From assembly GCA_944350225.1 (NCBI GenBank), contig CALVOH010000003.1:1-34327 (forward strand): a stretch of DNA of 34,327 nucleotides, read 5' to 3'. The notes beneath the pieces are model-generated. The model had not been told where the DNA came from, searched no databases, and saw nothing but the letters and a program-made list of their open reading frames with translations. This DNA comes from an uncultured Clostridia bacterium (GTDB lineage: Bacteria; Bacillota; Clostridia; Christensenellales; UBA1242). A program made the position numbers and the translations under genes. Shown here piece after piece: positions 1,668 to 23,754 of this stretch (positions are counted from its first letter, which is position 1; each line of letters starts with the position of its first letter).

Positions 1668-3962
1668 TTATATATCAAACACTTTTACCACCATAACTGT
1701 CATATCATCTCGCGCACATCCATCATTGTTTGCAAGTGCTTGCTCTAATATTTTATCAGCAATAGTTTGAGGATTTTTTGCATAGCAAGATTTTACGAAA
1801 TCTTCAAACGCCTCATCTGTGGCAAAACTGTCACTTACGCCATCGGTAACAAGCACTATGTTGTCGCCAGAACTCACAACAACCTTTTTTGTCGTTGGAT
1901 TGACTTTGTCAACTATGCCAAGAGGCAAGGCTCCACTTTCAATCCTTGAAACGTTTTCGTTTGACATAATCAAAGATATCGGTGACGCCATTTTAACAAA
2001 ATCTGCAAATCCATTTTTTAAATCCAACACGCAAACATCCAACGCGGAAAATTTTTCTTCGCGCTGTAAAGATAAAAGCTTGTTTACACTTGATAAAACG
2101 AGTTCACTATCAAAACCTGCCTTATAGAAGTTTTCAATAAGCCCTATAGCTATTTCGCTCGTGTTTTCGGCATCTTTCCCGCTACCCATTCCATCACAAA
2201 GAGAAAACATAAAACGGTCTCCGTTTAACCTTTGAACACTGTGACTGTCACCACTGCGAGAGCTTCCTGCTTTTGTATGCTGTGAAATCGCAAATACGCA
2301 ATCGTATTTTGATGCGGTTTTTAAACTTAAAGTCGTCCATCCTGGTTTTGTCGATGGAAATTTTTCATAAACTCCCATTTTCGACTTGCAAATTTTTCCT
2401 ATTATATCTGCTATTTTTATTTTTTCTGCATCGGTGTTTCGAACTACCACTGAGGCCTCACACGTTCTCGCGTCTCTTTCAAAAACTATAACATCCGAGC
2501 ACACAATATCATTAAACAGTAATTCATCAATTATTTTTTGTTCTCGCCGGCCGTCAAAAGATATTTCCGTGTCAACCTCTTTAGAAAGATCTCTCATTAC
2601 ACTTGAAATACCACCAAGCTGGTCGGCAATCAACATTTTTGACATGTCTATATTTGAAAGCATACCGCTATAAGATTTATATTGCCTAGTCAAACTGTTT
2701 GTAGCAGATATTATGCCATTCAGTCTACCACACCTTGAATTTAAATATGAAGGTATGTCCAAAAGCGTAATCTTTCCTTTTTCGAAAGCTATTGTTACCA
2801 ATTCGTCCAACACTTTTTCCGTTTCTGCCTGAAAGGTCCTATGGCATCTCGCTCGATCCGGGCAACTTTCACAATTGCGCGAAACAATCTCATCTCTTAA
2901 CAGTTTTTTTACTTCCTCTTCGCTTAAATTTTGTTTCACTAGCCCTCTAAAAACTTTGTTCATTTCGCCAAATACGTCAGAAAGCGAACCCAATCTACGT
3001 TTTAGAACTTCACGGTTTCTGTTAACAACATTCTTGACGGCAATCCTATCTCCTTTGAGGTCAAACACACCTTTTATTGACTCATAAATCTTATCTGGTA
3101 TTAATGCAAAAATTATGCAACTTATTCCTGCCGGCAAAATAGAAATCCAACTAAAATCAGGATATAAGTTTAAAAAGTATCCAATTACAATCTCGGTAAT
3201 CAACAACGATATTGCAGAAAAATATTTGCGATATGTTTTAAATGGAGATATCGCTAGCGCCCACAACATAAAAGGTGCAATAAATATAGGATTAAGAGTT
3301 GATATCAAAGTTCCAAGTCCTAGTATCGCTGCTACAAAAACCGAATAGTATGTTTTTGAACAATATGTTATTGCAAGTAAAACGAAGGACACAAAGAGTT
3401 TTAAAAAAGAAAACCCATACAACTGCACCGGCACAAGGCCACCAGCAAGTGCCATAAGTATTACGCCACCGCTAATAAGTTCTACAGCAGAAAGCCTATA
3501 ATTAAACCCTCTAACAAATATGGCTTCAAAAAATGTAATAGATCCTAACATAAACAACACGCCTAGCACACATGAAGCCACGGAATAATAAATAGAATTA
3601 AAGTTGCTTGATGTTATTGCAAAAACCATTGAAGCTATTTGGCTTAAAAAACAATATATGCTTAGTTCCCAAACAGGCAACGGCTTTTTACAAAAATAAT
3701 GTATAAGATAAGGAACAAACAAAAAAAAGACTGAGCAAATAGCTCCAATTATGCTTGGCATTGAATGGTCAAGGACAATGCTGGAAATTAAGTAAGCCGG
3801 GCAAACCAACCATATTTTTTGATTTGCCCAAACTAGCGCAAACATCATTGAAAACGCAAACGGGAATATCACGCCGGCTATTGAGGATAAGTTTAAAACA
3901 AAAAACAACCCTAAAAAGCCTATGCCTAAAAACAAATATTTAAGTTTTTCAAAAACGTTCAT
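1668..3962 (-). CDS. spoIIE: Stage II sporulation protein E (membrane PP2C phosphatase)
   Basis: Multi-TM N-terminus, CxxCx5C motif, PP2C motifs SGD, DGMGSG, VTDGV and DDMT. It lies upstream of tilS, as in other Firmicutes, and has an AGGAG RBS. Confidence 0.92.
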   Translation of the reverse strand: MNVFEKLKYLFLGIGFLGLFFVLNLSSIAGVIFPFAFSMMFALVWANQKIWLVCPAYLISSIVLDHSMPSIIGAICSVFFLFVPYLIHYFCKKPLPVWELSIYCFLSQIASMVFAITSSNFNSIYYSVASCVLGVLFMLGSITFFEAIFVRGFNYRLSAVELISGGVILMALAGGLVPVQLYGFSFLKLFVSFVLLAITYCSKTYYSVFVAAILGLGTLISTLNPIFIAPFMLWALAISPFKTYRKYFSAISLLITEIVIGYFLNLYPDFSWISILPAGISCIIFALIPDKIYESIKGVFDLKGDRIAVKNVVNRNREVLKRRLGSLSDVFGEMNKVFRGLVKQNLSEEEVKKLLRDEIVSRNCESCPDRARCHRTFQAETEKVLDELVTIAFEKGKITLLDIPSYLNSRCGRLNGIISATNSLTRQYKSYSGMLSNIDMSKMLIADQLGGISSVMRDLSKEVDTEISFDGRREQKIIDELLFNDIVCSDVIVFERDARTCEASVVVRNTDAEKIKIADIIGKICKSKMGVYEKFPSTKPGWTTLSLKTASKYDCVFAISQHTKAGSSRSGDSHSVQRLNGDRFMFSLCDGMGSGKDAENTSEIAIGLIENFYKAGFDSELVLSSVNKLLSLQREEKFSALDVCVLDLKNGFADFVKMASPISLIMSNENVSRIESGALPLGIVDKVNPTTKKVVVSSGDNIVLVTDGVSDSFATDEAFEDFVKSCYAKNPQTIADKILEQALANNDGCARDDMTVMVVKVFDI

Positions 3963-4681: not shown

Positions 4682-5371
4682 TTACATATGAAGATAATTC
4701 AAAATTCCACAAGCCACTGCATAACAAATTTCCTGACGATATTCATTTGAAAGCAGTAACTTTTCTTCTTCATGATTGGAAAGAAAACCAAACTCAACCA
4801 GTGCTCCCGGAACCTGCGTACAATTTAAAATGTAAAAATCTCCTGCGTTTGCTTGTGACTTGGCATAAGCTATATTTTCATACAAAGCATTTTGCAAACT
4901 TTGTGCAAGCGCTTGACCCCCATAATTCTTTTCATCAAAAAAAACGTGCGCTCCGCGAGATGAACTTAATGGAAAAGCATTCATGTGAACACTTAAAACT
5001 AAATCAGCAGCGCTGTCTTCAATAATTTTTTGCCTTGCCTCCATGTCTGAACGCTTTTTATTTGATGCGAGTGGCGAATATAAACCGTTTAAATCTGTTC
5101 TCGTCATAACGACTTTTAATCCCAGCCTTTCACAAATGGATTTTAAAGTTTCGGCATATTCTAAATTGAGTTCATTTTCTGTTATTCCACTCGATTTACC
5201 GATGCAGCCTCCATCTGCGCCACCATGCCCCGCATCAATAACAATGGAGTATTCTGGCTTGGGCGAGGATGTTGTTTGAACGGCATAAAAAATACCAAAA
5301 ATAGCACAAATCAAAACTATGCTTATTAAGATAATGCACAATGTCCGTTTTTTTATTGTTAAAAATTTCAT
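4682..5371 (-). CDS. cwlD: N-acetylmuramoyl-L-alanine amidase (Amidase_3, CwlD-like)
   Basis: N-terminal TM anchor, VIDAGHGGADGG, E..LN, SVHMNAF and LVEFGFLSN..E. The KRSDMEAR segment is CwlD-like. Confidence 0.85.
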   Translation of the reverse strand: MKFLTIKKRTLCIILISIVLICAIFGIFYAVQTTSSPKPEYSIVIDAGHGGADGGCIGKSSGITENELNLEYAETLKSICERLGLKVVMTRTDLNGLYSPLASNKKRSDMEARQKIIEDSAADLVLSVHMNAFPLSSSRGAHVFFDEKNYGGQALAQSLQNALYENIAYAKSQANAGDFYILNCTQVPGALVEFGFLSNHEEEKLLLSNEYRQEICYAVACGILNYLHM

Positions 5372-15052: not shown

Positions 15053-15823
15053 TTAGCCTTCCATAATCATTTTATCAGCAATAAGAGCTATAAGTTCGCC
15101 ATTTGTTGGCTTTTCATTACTGTTATATATTTTTAATCCGAAAAGTGCATTTATATTTTCTATTTTGCCTCTATTCCAAGCGACTTCAATCGCGTGTCGC
15201 ATACCTCTTTCCACTTTTGATGAGCTTGTTTCAAATCTTTCTGCAATTGTAGGATACAATTGTTTTGTGATTGATCCTATTATTTCAGGTTTTTCAACTG
15301 CAAGTTTAACAGCTTCTCTCAAAAACTGATACCCCTTTATATGAGCAGGAATTCCAATGCTTATAAAAATATTTGAAATTTTCTCGTCTAGTTGTTTGCT
15401 TGCTTTCATAGACAAAACAGAGTTGTTTTTATGGCTGTCCAACAAATCAAACATTCTTTCTTCCAACACCTCTGGTGCGACAGGCTTTACCATAAAATAA
15501 CTTGCGCCTTCATCCATCGCCTTTGTTACAAAGCCACTATGAGACAAGTTTGTAACAAAAATTACCTTCGGAATCTTTTCGTGCATCTCTTCTTTTAACT
15601 TTTCCAAAACGACAAAGCCGTCTATCCCACTTAACATAACCTCAATAATCAAAAAATCAGGTTTAAGTAAAGGCACATCTTTGACGACCTCATCGCCGTT
15701 TGGGCTAACACCCACAAGCGCAAATTTTTCGCTTTGGCGAAAATATGTTACAATCGAGTTTCCATCAGCTTTGTCTGCAACATAAACTCGAATTTTTCCT
15801 TTGTGAATCGGCAGATTTTCCAT
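15053..15823 (-). CDS. spo0A: Sporulation master regulator Spo0A with an atypical receiver domain
   Basis: Spo0A_C motifs IPAHIKGYQFLREA, ITKQLYPTIA, VERGMRHAIEVAWNRG and KPTNGELIALIADK. The N-terminal REC domain has Glu at the phosphoacceptor position. Confidence 0.94.
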   Translation of the reverse strand: MENLPIHKGKIRVYVADKADGNSIVTYFRQSEKFALVGVSPNGDEVVKDVPLLKPDFLIIEVMLSGIDGFVVLEKLKEEMHEKIPKVIFVTNLSHSGFVTKAMDEGASYFMVKPVAPEVLEERMFDLLDSHKNNSVLSMKASKQLDEKISNIFISIGIPAHIKGYQFLREAVKLAVEKPEIIGSITKQLYPTIAERFETSSSKVERGMRHAIEVAWNRGKIENINALFGLKIYNSNEKPTNGELIALIADKMIMEG

Positions 15824-15912
15824 AATTTCTCACTCCTTTTATATAATATTTTGAAAAATCATAAATTTCACTTGTTTTGTGAAACATATTTAAATTATCA
15901 CAAAAAGCCGAC

Positions 15913-15948
15913 AAAAAAAAGAATAACTCGCATCAAATAATGCGAGTT
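15913..15948 (-). terminator. Intrinsic terminator after the lipoprotein gene
   Basis: AACTCGCAT/ATGCGAGTT stem at 15925-15948, followed on the minus strand by attc and a T run. Confidence 0.6.
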
Positions 15949-15949
15949 G

Positions 15950-15966
15950 TGTCTAATTTTGTTGAA
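15950..15966. promoter_or_regulatory. Tandem 0A-box-like sites upstream of spo0A
   Basis: TGTCTAA-ttt-TGTTGAA: each has one mismatch to TGNCGAA, with a 3-bp spacer. Confidence 0.55.
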
Positions 15967-16023
15967 ACCTGATTATGCCTTTTTTTTACCTAAAAAAGCT
16001 TAAAATTTGTTGATTACAAAATA

Positions 16024-17400
16024 CTAATTAATTGTCTTTCCTAGGAGTTTAGGATTTGTTTGCGCAGTAAATGAAACTTGATATAAATAATAGTTAGCAT
16101 CAGTTTGCTCTTCTTCGCTCACCTCAGCCTCTTCGCTTTGATCATAAACTCGTTGAGCATAAAAATAAACATTTTTCAAGTTGCCGCTCTCATGAATTTC
16201 ATACCCTGCTTTGTCGCTTATAACAGTCATGCCGTCGACAAGAACTTTTATTTCTTCTGGTTCTAAAACACTTAAATATGATATTCCGTCTTCTGTGGAG
16301 AAAAATACTAGGTCATTATTCACAAACAGCACCGAATTGTATTCTCCACTTGCCAACAATCTTATAGGCTCGCTTGAATTATCTGCTTTATAAAATAGTT
16401 GTGCTTCTCCTGAAAGTGAGGACTCAAATATATATCCATTAAAACTGCTAGCTGTTTTGCATTCTATTCTAAATATATTGTCTATTTGGGCTGAATAAAA
16501 TGGTTTTTCTAGTGCTGAAAGGAAACTGGTCGTAGCAAGTTTTTGTGTGTTTAGTTTGTATGTGTTTGAAACACCTGTAATTTCATTTAATCTTGTAAGA
16601 AAAAGTTCGTTTCCTTCTCTTCCTGTAAACGTGATCGTGTTGTTTATTGTGCTACTAATTGATCGCGATTGCTTTGAAGCCAAATCAAATTCAAAAACTT
16701 CATTCCCTGATTGCCCGAACTCGTTCTCTTTGTCTTGTGTATAATATAGCTTTCCATCAAATTCGTCGTTTTCCTTAGGCAAAGCGACGCTTGTTGCAGA
16801 AGCAGAGATTTCAATCTTTTCATCGTTAGCCAAATTGATTACATTTAAAGCTGTTCCATCGTAGATTATAAAATAACTTTCCCCATCGAATTGAACTGCT
16901 CTAAATTGAGCTTTCTCGCTGTCAAAAGAATTCGTCGTCATAATTTCTTTGGTATCTTTCCCGTTCAGCCTGGTTTTAAAAACAGAAACATAAGTGAAAA
17001 CATATTCATTAAACTTTGTTTTATGTTTGTTTGGACTAGTGTAATAAACAAAATCTCCAAGCACAAAACTATACATGTTTTCATATCCCAAAACTTCGCT
17101 ATTTAACTTGTTTACATTTTCAGGTGAAGAGTATTGTTGTGTTTCTTCGTTAAGGTCGAGTCTTGCGAGATATGAATATTCAGCACCTGCATTAAACTCG
17201 TCCATCGATGTTATATCAGAGTTGACATAACCATTTGCATAAAAAATATTGTCGTCCACCACCGACACTATGCCACCATTATAAAGTATTTGCCCACTTT
17301 TACTGTTTGGAATACCACTAGAACTTGAACAAGCCACAAGAGATATTGAAAAAAATCCAACAAGCAACAAAAGTGAAAATATCTTAATTAATTTTTTCAT
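16024..17400 (-). CDS. Lipoprotein, probable beta-propeller (DUF5050-like)
   Basis: Lipobox LVAC, repeated 'D.IFY/VYY/LYY/VFF' blade-like motifs and a GGAG RBS. Confidence 0.75.
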   Translation of the reverse strand: MKKLIKIFSLLLLVGFFSISLVACSSSSGIPNSKSGQILYNGGIVSVVDDNIFYANGYVNSDITSMDEFNAGAEYSYLARLDLNEETQQYSSPENVNKLNSEVLGYENMYSFVLGDFVYYTSPNKHKTKFNEYVFTYVSVFKTRLNGKDTKEIMTTNSFDSEKAQFRAVQFDGESYFIIYDGTALNVINLANDEKIEISASATSVALPKENDEFDGKLYYTQDKENEFGQSGNEVFEFDLASKQSRSISSTINNTITFTGREGNELFLTRLNEITGVSNTYKLNTQKLATTSFLSALEKPFYSAQIDNIFRIECKTASSFNGYIFESSLSGEAQLFYKADNSSEPIRLLASGEYNSVLFVNNDLVFFSTEDGISYLSVLEPEEIKVLVDGMTVISDKAGYEIHESGNLKNVYFYAQRVYDQSEEAEVSEEEQTDANYYLYQVSFTAQTNPKLLGKTIN

Positions 17401-18847: not shown

Positions 18848-19927
18848 TTAAACTTTAACAACTGAATATGACAAGTAAACATTCAAATTTGGATAGATTA
18901 TTGTTATTGTGGCATTTGTAAAATCTTCTAGCACTATCATTGTAAGCTCTTTGTATATCTTCCCTTCACTTGTAAATAATTTTGGTTCTTCATTTTTGAC
19001 ATTTGTTTCAAATATCAATAAGTCATCTTTAACATATATAGTTCCGTTTTTTAATTCTGCGTTTGAATTGAATATCAGTTTTATTTCTTGCTCATATTCA
19101 ATTTCCACTTCTATCTCTTTTATTAATTCATCGTTTAAATACACTAAAAGTCTGCTCGTTCCACTTTGCTTCCCTGTTATTGTTAGATTGTTGATTGACA
19201 GATTATTGCCTTCTTCTTTTAACTCTATCTCGGCTTGTCCTGTGTAATATACAGGGGTTATTGTTTTGTCTATTGTAAAAGATTGATTTTGAGATAAACA
19301 TATCTCGTTCGGCAATTCAATATTTGGCGAAACTGAGAGCACTTCAACTTCTACCGTTTGTTTTTGCGTTTGTAATGTAAAGGTTATTATAGTTGTTCCT
19401 ATCTTACTCGCAGTTATAATGTTTTTTGATACTTTAACTGAACTTCCTTCTAATGTTAAAGAATAATCCTTGTATGATTGAAAACTTTTTTGATTATCAA
19501 TCCCGTCTTCTCTTGCTTTGTCTATCTCTTTATCTAACAAATACAACGTTATCTTACTTGGAAGGTCTGTTATCGGCCCATCTGGGTTTTCTAAAACACT
19601 TATCTTTGTTGTTGTAATTGCCCTATCTTCTCCCCTCGTCGCCGTTGCTCGTAACGTAGCTGTTCCCACTTGTTTCGCGTATATGTAACCGTCTTGTAAG
19701 ATAGCTATGTCTTCATTTTCTATAACAAATGTTACTGTGGCTTCTTCGTCAGAGCATTTGTATGTAATAGGTTTTACTTCGTCAACTTGTATTGATATTT
19801 CATCAACTGCTATGCTTAAATCTGTCGCTTTCGGTTTTGTTACCATGACACAGATTATCGCTATCACGCAACACATTATAGCCATCACCGCAGATATGCT
19901 TATCACTACTTTCAACTTCTTCGTCAT
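18848..19927 (-). CDS. Membrane-anchored bacterial Ig-like (Big_2-type) domain protein, copy 1
   Basis: N-terminal TM segment and repeated motifs IYAKQVGTATL, ITASKIGTTII and ITGKQSGTSRL. Confidence 0.8.
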   Translation of the reverse strand: MTKKLKVVISISAVMAIMCCVIAIICVMVTKPKATDLSIAVDEISIQVDEVKPITYKCSDEEATVTFVIENEDIAILQDGYIYAKQVGTATLRATATRGEDRAITTTKISVLENPDGPITDLPSKITLYLLDKEIDKAREDGIDNQKSFQSYKDYSLTLEGSSVKVSKNIITASKIGTTIITFTLQTQKQTVEVEVLSVSPNIELPNEICLSQNQSFTIDKTITPVYYTGQAEIELKEEGNNLSINNLTITGKQSGTSRLLVYLNDELIKEIEVEIEYEQEIKLIFNSNAELKNGTIYVKDDLLIFETNVKNEEPKLFTSEGKIYKELTMIVLEDFTNATITIIYPNLNVYLSYSVVKV

Positions 19928-22674: not shown

Positions 22675-23754
22675 TTAAACTTTAACAACTGAATATGACA
22701 AGTAAACATTCAAATTTGGATAGATTATTGTTATTGTGGCATTTGTAAAATCTTCTAGCACTATCATTGTAAGCTCTTTGTATATCTTCCCTTCACTTGT
22801 AAATAATTTTGGTTCTTCATTTTTGACATTTGTTTCAAATATCAATAAGTCATCTTTAACATATATAGTTCCGTTTTTTAATTCTGCGTTTGAATTGAAT
22901 ATCAGTTTTATTTCTTGCTCATATTCAATTTCCACTTCTATCTCTTTTATTAATTCATCGTTTAAATACACTAAAAGTCTGCTCGTTCCACTTTGCTTCC
23001 CTGTTATTGTTAGATTGTTGATTGACAGATTATTGCCTTCTTCTTTTAACTCTATCTCGGCTTGTCCTGTGTAATATACAGGGGTTATTGTTTTGTCTAT
23101 TGTAAAAGATTGATTTTGAGATAAACATATCTCGTTCGGCAATTCAATATTTGGCGAAACTGAGAGCACTTCAACTTCTACCGTTTGTTTTTGCGTTTGT
23201 AATGTAAAGGTTATTATAGTTGTTCCTATCTTACTCGCAGTTATAATGTTTTTTGATACTTTAACTGAACTTCCTTCTAATGTTAAAGAATAATCCTTGT
23301 ATGATTGAAAACTTTTTTGATTATCAATCCCGTCTTCTCTTGCTTTGTCTATCTCTTTATCTAACAAATACAACGTTATCTTACTTGGAAGGTCTGTTAT
23401 CGGCCCATCTGGGTTTTCTAAAACACTTATCTTTGTTGTTGTAATTGCCCTATCTTCTCCCCTCGTCGCCGTTGCTCGTAACGTAGCTGTTCCCACTTGT
23501 TTCGCGTATATGTAACCGTCTTGTAAGATAGCTATGTCTTCATTTTCTATAACAAATGTTACTGTGGCTTCTTCGTCAGAGCATTTGTATGTAATAGGTT
23601 TTACTTCGTCAACTTGTATTGATATTTCATCAACTGCTATGCTTAAATCTGTCGCTTTCGGTTTTGTTACCATGACACATATTATCGCTATCACGCAACA
23701 CATTATAGCCATTACCGCAGATATGCTTATCACTACTTTCAATTTTCTCGTCAT
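22675..23754 (-). CDS. Ig-like domain protein, copy 2
   Basis: The translation is identical to copy 1 except K3R. Confidence 0.8.
   Translation of the reverse strand: MTRKLKVVISISAVMAIMCCVIAIICVMVTKPKATDLSIAVDEISIQVDEVKPITYKCSDEEATVTFVIENEDIAILQDGYIYAKQVGTATLRATATRGEDRAITTTKISVLENPDGPITDLPSKITLYLLDKEIDKAREDGIDNQKSFQSYKDYSLTLEGSSVKVSKNIITASKIGTTIITFTLQTQKQTVEVEVLSVSPNIELPNEICLSQNQSFTIDKTITPVYYTGQAEIELKEEGNNLSINNLTITGKQSGTSRLLVYLNDELIKEIEVEIEYEQEIKLIFNSNAELKNGTIYVKDDLLIFETNVKNEEPKLFTSEGKIYKELTMIVLEDFTNATITIIYPNLNVYLSYSVVKV

Follow-up and report, generated by a model that had tools for sequence, protein, structure and literature searches.

How does a bacterium begin to form endospores when its sporulation master regulator lacks the residue that normally receives the phosphoryl group? 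In the textbook account, endospore formation is triggered when Spo0A is phosphorylated at Asp56, by kinases or through a phosphorelay. A 34,327-nucleotide stretch of an uncultured Clostridia bacterium (contig CALVOH010000003.1; the whole stretch is called the window below) raises this question, because the spo0A coding sequence on its minus strand (15053–15823; 256 amino acids) specifies a protein with glutamate, Glu61, at the acceptor site. This is the sole full-length Spo0A that we found in the genome, and no partner histidine kinase or phosphorelay was found in what is a 96% complete draft. We consider it probable, with appreciable room for doubt, that the protein is an orthologous and functional Spo0A whose aspartate-less pseudo-receiver makes it independent of phosphorylation, so that its amount sets its activity; sporulation in this lineage would then probably be started without phosphorylation.

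The gene was recognized in the list of open reading frames (ORFs) and by its match to the NCBIfam equivalog TIGR02875 (spore_0_A), where its product scores 229.6 bits, above the cut-off of 200. In Pfam, Response_reg (PF00072) matches residues 24–123 (E = 1.9e-14; 54.2 bits against a cut-off of 30.2) and Spo0A_C (PF08769) matches residues 149–251 (E = 2.4e-38; profile positions 1–103 of 104). On the basis of PF00072, an AlphaFold2 model and Foldseek, the aspartate-less pseudo-receiver domain spans residues 10–130 (15434–15796, minus strand, as for all elements of this gene), while PF08769, phmmer and Foldseek place the Spo0A_C DNA-binding and transcription-activation domain at 15071–15379; phmmer aligned the latter with 1lq1 and 1fc3 at E of about 1e-36.

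Using HMMER, we paired the N-terminal 135 residues with the B. subtilis Spo0A receiver (9phz_E), whose numbering is used below for sites such as D11. Asp17 falls on D10, Lys18 on D11, Glu61 on D56, Thr91 on T86 and Lys113 on K108. The protein reads KIRVYVAD17K18ADGN and KPDFLIIE61VMLSGIDG, and the GAG codon of Glu61 (15641–15643; read as 15643–15641 on the minus strand) sits within CCTGATTTTTTGATTATTGAGGTTATG. Canonical Spo0A carries the acidic pair Asp10/Asp11 and the acceptor Asp56; of these, only the first acidic-pocket residue is retained (Asp17-Lys18 codons, 15770–15775), with Lys at the second, Mg-binding position and Glu at the acceptor. The conserved receiver Thr/Ser and Lys remain as Thr91 (15551–15553) and Lys113 (15485–15487). 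This combination, namely a domain recognized by PF00072 with Lys in place of the second Asp of the DD pair, Glu in place of the acceptor Asp, and the Thr and Lys retained, is that of an aspartate-less receiver. The preliminary description of this locus, made from the letters alone, had reported Glu (GAG) at the acceptor site and VADDN changed to VADKA, with Thr91, Lys113 and the DNA-binding domain intact; the 9phz_E alignment agrees with it residue for residue, and Pfam and Foldseek agree on the intact domain.

The AlphaFold2 model (68-row alignment; mean predicted local distance difference test score, pLDDT, 86.1) shows a full (βα)5 receiver, mostly with pLDDT >90, followed by a disordered linker (residues 131–140) and a helical C-terminal domain. 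The receiver elements are β1 (11–16), α1 (23–30), β2 (34–39), α2 (43–53), β3 (57–60), α3 (69–83), β4 (86–91), α4 (96–104), β5 (109–112) and α5 (117–129), and Glu61 comes directly after strand β3, which is where canonical receivers have the acceptor Asp. Foldseek matched the receiver to two Spo0A receivers, 5wq0 and 1qmp (template modelling scores, TMt, of 0.87 and 0.84), and the C-terminal domain to 1fc3 and 1lq1 (TMt 0.87–0.91; root mean square deviation 1.4–2.2 Å). A receiver homodimer prediction (residues 8–130 in two copies, with its own alignment) scored 0.00 in both runs, which speaks neither for nor against dimerization.

We then compared the pocket with that of its relatives. In the 120 closest proteins of a 5.8-billion-protein collection (74–99% identical), the acceptor column holds Glu in 119 and Asp in one (P0033). 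Asp is present at D10 in 120/120, the D11 column contains K in 85, N in 25, T in 5, S in 3, C in 1 and G in 1, the Thr/Ser column is T in 82 and S in 38, and Lys is kept in 120/120. Full-length Spo0A orthologues were found in 21 of 24 genomes of the same genus, with Glu in 20 and Asp in one (L023, genome G009). In runs X3 and X10, which come from two other samples, contigs span the codon with 0 differences, and none of the differences displayed for 4 runs from 4 studies falls at 15641–15643 (16 lesser differences are not displayed). Most of the runs containing the stretch are labelled chicken gut or bird metagenomes, and none is labelled RNA. The homologues, the genus orthologues and the identical X3 and X10 contigs show that the changes are real and not a sequencing error, as the preliminary description had held, and across the clade Glu at the acceptor and a non-acidic D11 site are fixed.

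The Glu-type protein groups as a Spo0A orthologue. It nests among Spo0A orthologues of the same order, to which it is 43–53% identical; the second Spo0A-like copies in those genomes are only 29–39% identical to it, and we rejected on this ground the possibility that it is a Spo0A paralogue of the kind found in other families. Twelve such second copies were fetched, of which the 10 that were readable have Asp in nine cases and Glu in one (L174). A search of the genome for a second, canonical spo0A recovered only three short Spo0A_C-only ORFs of about 90–156 amino acids (L002–L004; G000:C20:13127–13519, C17:2275–2730 and C52:3200–3460). They are 25–33% identical to the DNA-binding domain of Spo0A, and similar ORFs are found in nearly every genus genome and in some other families; the one on C52 has a TGTCGAA box 89 nt upstream. 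These ORFs could be competitors or partners of Spo0A. At 15179–15196 (Spo0A residues 210–215) the canonical ERAIRH is ERGMRH across the genus, and the Spo0A_C-only paralogues have Met there too (VERxMRH). In the wider protein collection, P0122, P0125, P0127 and P0129 (394–454 amino acids) contain three or four tandem Spo0A_C-like stretches and no receiver match.

The genome that carries this gene comprises 831,551 bp in 69 contigs (2.3% contamination, 34% G+C). Profile searches of it returned 0 matches each for HisKA and HATPase_c_5. Four HATPase_c matches were read as two GyrB/ParE-type proteins, MutL and SpoIIAB, none of them a kinase; the first three were assigned by eye from their translations and SpoIIAB also from its location, flanked by a SpoIIAA-sized ORF and sigF. 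The single Response_reg match is Spo0A itself, and no Spo0F-like protein was found. A Hanks-type Ser/Thr kinase acting on the Ser/Thr-rich α4 was also considered, and Pkinase had 0 matches in the genome. With no histidine kinase, no other receiver and no Hanks kinase, the census lends good support to the earlier proposal of a pseudo-receiver and kinase-independent entry into sporulation. With Glu for the acceptor Asp and Lys for the second Mg-binding Asp, and with neither kinase nor phosphorelay protein found, the protein cannot be phosphorylated by the normal route.

Kinase genes were also counted in related genomes. HisKA was detected in 4 of 24 genus relatives. The lone kinases of G005, G013 and G016, and that of G044 from outside the genus sample, each adjoin their own OmpR-type regulator and are ordinary cognate pairs, not orphan sporulation kinases; the HisKA match in G004 is a 190-amino-acid piece and was not among the four neighbourhoods inspected. 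In a further set of genomes, 5 of 22 had HisKA (one match each in G044, G047, G053 and G062, five in G054). Glu-type genomes outside the genus had none (0/7, plus 0/1 for G064), and HisKA was likewise missing from 9 of 11 Asp-type relatives with a non-acidic D11 site. In other families of the order, 15 of 16 genomes have 2–29 HisKA matches, the exception being G040.

A phylogenetic tree was built from 110 Spo0A sequences (the window, 29 loci from the genome search and 80 species-representative loci) using IQ-TREE in quick mode with the Shimodaira–Hasegawa-like approximate likelihood ratio test (SH-aLRT), leaving out two trait columns. The acceptor is Glu in 85 of these sequences and Asp in 25, with no other residue, and the tree needs at least 4 changes of acceptor state. 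The main Glu clade has 75 tips (SH-aLRT 99); a separate second Glu clade of 10 tips (99) is nested with two Asp-type sisters (support 96), a third Glu case (L113) is placed without support, and L023 is a reversal to Asp within the main clade. Of 28 other families of the order, 27 have Asp, and the one with an independent Glu (L152; IAESDG ... LLCELIMP) is represented by a 1.3-Mb genome, G064, in which no HisKA was found. Judged by the tree, Asp-to-Glu arose at least twice with good support and probably four times, with a single reversal. A non-acidic residue at the second acidic site (N, S, K, A, T, C and others) characterizes most of a wider clade of 100 tips (support 97) that includes Asp-type small genomes and is probably the family UBA1242. 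The likely order of events is loss of kinases and of the metal-binding Asp first, followed by Asp-to-Glu several times.

To gauge selection, we calculated ratios of nonsynonymous to synonymous substitution (dN/dS) by the Nei–Gojobori method for 85 close Glu-type pairs passing a filter of our own choosing (receiver dN ≤0.2, dS 0.1–1.5). The median was 0.122 for the receiver (range 0–0.191) and 0.009 for the DNA-binding domain (range 0–0.040), which is almost invariant in the genus. Without the filter, the receiver median for 140 pairs was 0.26, with many pairs saturated. The filtered values come from Glu-type pairs alone, with no close fully canonical Spo0A pairs as a control. By these estimates the receiver is under purifying selection.

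Columns of the alignment point to what is being conserved. Compared with 35 canonical sequences from other families, the 73 distinct main-clade sequences have lost the canonical conservation at the D11 site, at the Asn that follows and at the Pro after the acceptor, which has become Ser. New invariant or near-invariant positions are A16, E61, L64, K86, F89 and the run N92-L-S-H95-S-G97-F98-V at the β4–α4 junction. Glu61 is present in 73/73; H95, G97 and F98 each reach 100% and S94 95%. The motif columns are variable in the canonical sequences, where the top residues are Q, D and F at frequencies of 0.40, 0.29 and 0.49. In the window this clade-specific motif, S94-H95-S96-G97-F98, is encoded at 15530–15544. 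Its general form, (S/T)-H-(S/E/D)-G-F, appears in all displayed sequences with a non-acidic D11 site, Asp- or Glu-type, and in none of the canonical ones displayed. The main-clade sequences have diverged less than the canonical ones, and some extra conservation is expected on that account; the complete invariance of H95, G97 and F98 still stands out against a mean entropy of 1.27 bits for the receiver.

Cluster representatives resembling Spo0A number 764 at E ≤1e-30. A broader survey took the 150 nearest 50%-identity cluster representatives, of which 118 were near full length. Asp was missing from the acceptor column in 30 of the 118 (E in 10, G in 7, N in 6, and others), a few of which are probably misaligned. 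In P0130, P0141, P0148, P0150, P0232 and others, the residue aligned with the acceptor is Asn, Gly, Ser or Gln, and the Asn-type cluster of P0130 comprises 156 members, one of them found on 254 contigs. Aspartate-less Spo0A-like proteins may be widespread beyond this clade and common in uncultured Clostridia.

The programme that Spo0A normally controls is largely in place. Within the window, spoIIE (1668–3962, minus strand) matches SpoIIE_N (8.5e-38) and the SpoIIE PP2C domain (7.5e-28), with TIGR02865 as its best full-length match at 375 bits, below the cut-off of 490.8; a cwlD-like amidase (4682–5371, minus strand) matches Amidase_3 (2.7e-41), with TIGR02883 (spore_cwlD) best at 170.4 bits, also below its cut-off (221.55). 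Both genes had been described as retained, and on these Pfam and best NCBIfam matches they are. Elsewhere in the genome are SpoIVA, SpoIIGA, SpoIIID, SpoIIIAE, two SpoVAC/SpoVAEB genes, an ftsZ-spoIIGA-sigE-sigG cluster and a spoIIAA-spoIIAB-sigF operon. The sigma factors number exactly six, with RpoD, SigH, SigF, SigE, SigG and SigK as their best NCBIfam matches; most scores are under the strict equivalog cut-offs, and five of the six make up the sporulation set. SpoIVA was found in 23 of 24 genus relatives. SpoIID (PF08486) and the α/β-type small acid-soluble spore protein (SASP; PF00269) were not found in the genome; all the other core sporulation genes in the search were recovered.

Immediately upstream of spo0A, at the place that spoIVB occupies in model species, the window has an ORF of 458 amino acids with a lipoprotein-like signal (16024–17400, minus strand) and no Pfam or NCBIfam match. 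A conserved partner gene beside spo0A was considered and rejected: the upstream ORF is syntenic in 46 of the 84 Glu-type loci, and only 11 of the 84 have a detectable counterpart of the downstream one, a 101-amino-acid membrane ORF.

Between the 458-amino-acid ORF and spo0A lies an upstream region (15824–16023, minus strand) in which we identified by eye the hairpin and T-run of the upstream gene, 0A-like boxes, a −10-like element and a ribosome-binding site. Two boxes differ from the 0A box by one mismatch (TTCAACA, 15960–15966; TTAGACA, 15950–15956), and TGTCGGC lies at 15907–15913; the extended −10-like element TGTGATAATTT is at −79, and the ribosome-binding site is AAGGAG. In the window, TGTCGAA occurs 9 times against 4.6 expected, a count that 3 of 100 shuffles reach. 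Genome-wide, intergenic TGTCGAA occurs 18 times, whereas 60 permuted heptamers average 6.05 and 3 of them reach 18; the enrichment is mild only.

Across relatives, 48 of 84 Glu-type loci have an exact TGNCGAA in the 200 bp preceding spo0A (shuffle mean 3.9, maximum 9 in 200 shuffles), against 6 of 82 in the downstream control, and Asp-type loci are similar upstream (13/25). These boxes cluster 100–145 nt before the ATG, ahead of an extended −10-like motif, TGTGnTAnnTT (−47 to −105), and the one-mismatch boxes of the window occupy the homologous position. The −10-like motif is present in 54 of 84 Glu-type loci, a count that is biased because the motif was derived from the same sequences; the box counts, for their part, overstate independence since the loci are mutually related. 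The earlier claim that 0A-like boxes are retained thus holds across relatives (48/84) and is weak for the window itself, with its 9 against 4.6 and none near spo0A or spoIIE. Further along the window, two ORFs of 359 amino acids on the minus strand (18848–19927 and 22675–23754), identical at 358 of 359 residues and with an N-terminal membrane anchor and weak Pfam matches, are each preceded by the same promoter region, in which TTCGACA lies about 25 nt before the ATG and TTTCGAT slightly farther from it; both ORFs may be targets of Spo0A.

What these comparisons establish, at the level of sequence, is that the canonical chemistry of phosphorylation is missing along with its partners, and that the protein and its usual programme are under selection. 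The reading that we favour would connect them as follows. The receiver would be retained as a folded regulatory or dimerization module, in which Glu61, together with Thr91 and Lys113, would favour an active-like conformation; the new His motif might stabilize this state or form a new input site. Spo0A activity would be set mainly by the amount of protein and not by a kinase signal, and that amount by a sigma-A-type promoter and positive autoregulation through the 0A boxes upstream of spo0A, with dosage acting as the threshold. Spo0A would then turn on the retained cascade of spoIIA/sigF, spoIIE, spoIIGA-sigE, sigG and sigK. Two papers describe precedents for such a state. Aspartate-less receivers most often replace the acceptor with Glu, and as a rule they retain the first acidic residue and the Lys and lose the second acidic residue (PMC4395418); Glu can act as a partial phosphomimetic through binding of the T and K (PMC12632262).

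Several observations weigh against this reading. None of spo0A, spoIIE, spoIIGA and sigH in this genome has an exact TGNCGAA in the 300 bp that precede it. The Asp-to-Glu exchange has a history in Spo0A, for which Green, Olmedo and Youngman are reportedly the source, in 1991. By itself the exchange was insufficient for constitutive activity in B. subtilis Spo0A, according to the available text of PMC4395418. The genome G040 (locus L028, 1.3 Mb) combines a canonical DD/D Spo0A pocket with no HisKA match, which means that loss of kinases and loss of Asp are not strictly coupled. The return of Asp in L023 and P0033 fits a site that is no longer constrained, and related genomes are non-independent samples. 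For this genome taken alone, a kinase might lie in the missing part of the draft. Protein and TIGR02875 searches found no full-length spo0A, only Spo0A_C-only ORFs, in three of the 24 genus genomes (G008, G016 and G018), which are 95, 89 and 92% complete, G008 in just 9 contigs; two of them (G008 and G016) retain spoIVA. Spo0A may therefore be dispensable, or these are assembly gaps. Finally, since SpoIID and the α/β-type SASP were not found, sporulation may be atypical or incomplete.

Among the alternatives, it is possible, though we think it unlikely, that the receiver has been repurposed: a partner, small molecule or metal would bind the altered pocket (Asp17, Glu61, Thr91, Lys113 and the His95 motif) and so switch Spo0A, Glu being part of a new site and not a phosphomimetic. 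This would suit the appearance of (S/T)-H-(S/E)-G-F with loss of the second acidic residue, its invariance in the main clade against its variability in canonical proteins, and the purifying selection on the receiver. Known bacterial pseudo-receivers are controlled by redox, cyclic di-GMP or partners (PMC12632262), and the Spo0A_C-only paralogues in nearly every genus genome could be partners or competitors; the neighbourhood of spo0A, however, offers no gene conserved with it across the clade. In its furthest form, which we regard as a shade more doubtful still, the receiver would have been rebuilt as a new sensor in which Glu61, Asp17, Thr91, Lys113 and the His95 motif bind a metabolite, metal or partner, sporulation would be launched without phosphorylation in step with the state of the host or a partner cell, and this solution would have been reached several times independently.

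It is improbable that the receiver is a relic of relaxed selection, in which the kinases were lost, the acceptor drifted and Asp-to-Glu is irrelevant, with Spo0A working through basal unphosphorylated activity or as a passive scaffold. Drift would give many residues, whereas the replacement here is always Glu (85 E and 25 D among 110), and it is invariant throughout the 73 main-clade sequences; this argues that selection favours a side chain whose carboxylate is one methylene further out than in Asp. The idea does draw on the kinases having already gone from most Asp-type relatives with a non-acidic D11 site, on the one reversal to Asp in L023, and on the C. difficile D56A mutant, in which sporulation is reduced and not zero (preprint 10.1101/2022.02.07.479450, as far as its available text goes).

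Even less credible is continued phosphorylation, on Glu61, Asp17 or a Ser or Thr of α4, by a donor or kinase that we did not recognize. The phosphoryl-oxygen binders Thr91 (as T/S) and Lys113 are kept in 120/120, conserved Ser/Thr residues flank His95, and phosphorylation of Glu is possible in principle; the same source knows of no example of it in bacterial signalling in the text available (PMC4395418), the Mg-binding second Asp is gone, and the genome yielded no HisKA, HATPase_c-type, HATPase_c_5 or Hanks kinase. A sequencing or assembly error, or a spo0A decaying in a lineage that is losing sporulation, is largely refuted by the intact frame, Glu in 119/120 homologues, other-sample contigs identical over the codon, a DNA-binding-domain dN/dS of about 0.01 and a core sporulation set kept across the genus, against which stand only the unfound SpoIID and SASP, the three genus genomes in which no full-length spo0A was found and the draft state of this metagenome-assembled genome.

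If the favoured reading is right, a lineage that keeps the core sporulation programme in less than 1 Mb, with no acceptor, metal site or kinases, amounts to a natural experiment on a kinase-free decision to sporulate. Its Spo0A would also offer a naturally optimized Glu-type protein for studying the activation of pseudo-receivers, which PMC12632262 calls a mystery. The lineage inhabits the guts of chickens and other animals, where spores, if truly formed, would shape transmission. Two further papers give its probable setting: Ca. Caccovivens is placed in Christensenellales, family UBA1242 (PMC8035907), and UBA1242, including the genus UBA5489, has genomes of less than 1 Mb and a probable partner-dependent lifestyle (PMC12306168). 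The latter paper calls sporulation genes in UBA1242 'quite unexpected' and, in the text available, makes no mention of two-component systems. Our literature search, which covered the pseudo-receiver papers without their supplements, found no description of a Spo0A naturally lacking the acceptor Asp or of kinase-less sporulators. The word Spo0A is absent from the available text of the 2025 pseudo-receiver review (PMC12632262; supplement aside), and the available text of a 2018 survey of sporulation initiation (PMC6136694) has nothing on an Asp-less Spo0A.

The closest known system is canonical Spo0A of B. subtilis, G. stearothermophilus and C. difficile (1lq1, 1fc3, 1qmp, 9phz and 5wq0), with which the protein shares the receiver and Spo0A_C architecture, a DNA-binding domain 53–55% identical to the solved structures, a sporulation sigma cascade in the genome and 0A boxes upstream in relatives. 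It differs in having Glu for Asp56 and Lys for Asp11, in the loss of the 'DDN' and 'MP' motifs and the gain of SHSGF, and in that no kinase or phosphorelay partner was found. All Spo0A proteins studied are regulated by phosphorylation, and D10A, D11A and D56A cripple sporulation in C. difficile (preprint 10.1101/2022.02.07.479450, available text).

Aspartate-less receivers such as ChxR of Chlamydia, with Glu at the site, HP1043 and RitR show the same pattern of substitution and are orphans without a kinase (PMC4395418, PMC12632262); in the available text of PMC4395418, Spo0A is named only as a canonical protein that D-to-E alone does not activate. Here the output is Spo0A_C, the process is endospore formation, and the change has occurred naturally, repeatedly and across a clade. 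Engineered Asp-to-Glu phosphomimetics, on which Klose is said to have worked in 1993, are a further parallel. NtrC D54E and others carry the identical change, with the same proposed mechanism in which the longer carboxylate contacts T and K (PMC12632262). They are laboratory mutants of kinase-dependent regulators and often only partly active, whereas here the Glu form is wild type and comes with other changes that are also fixed. Plant pseudo-response regulators and fungal Rim15p show a natural, lineage-wide acceptor-to-Glu change in a receiver that still functions (PMC12632262), but they are eukaryotic, with unrelated outputs and other phosphorylation inputs. Pseudo-receivers, Glu at the Asp site and orphan regulators are thus well known; what is new is their occurrence in a sporulation master regulator, across a clade and repeatedly, together with total loss of kinases.

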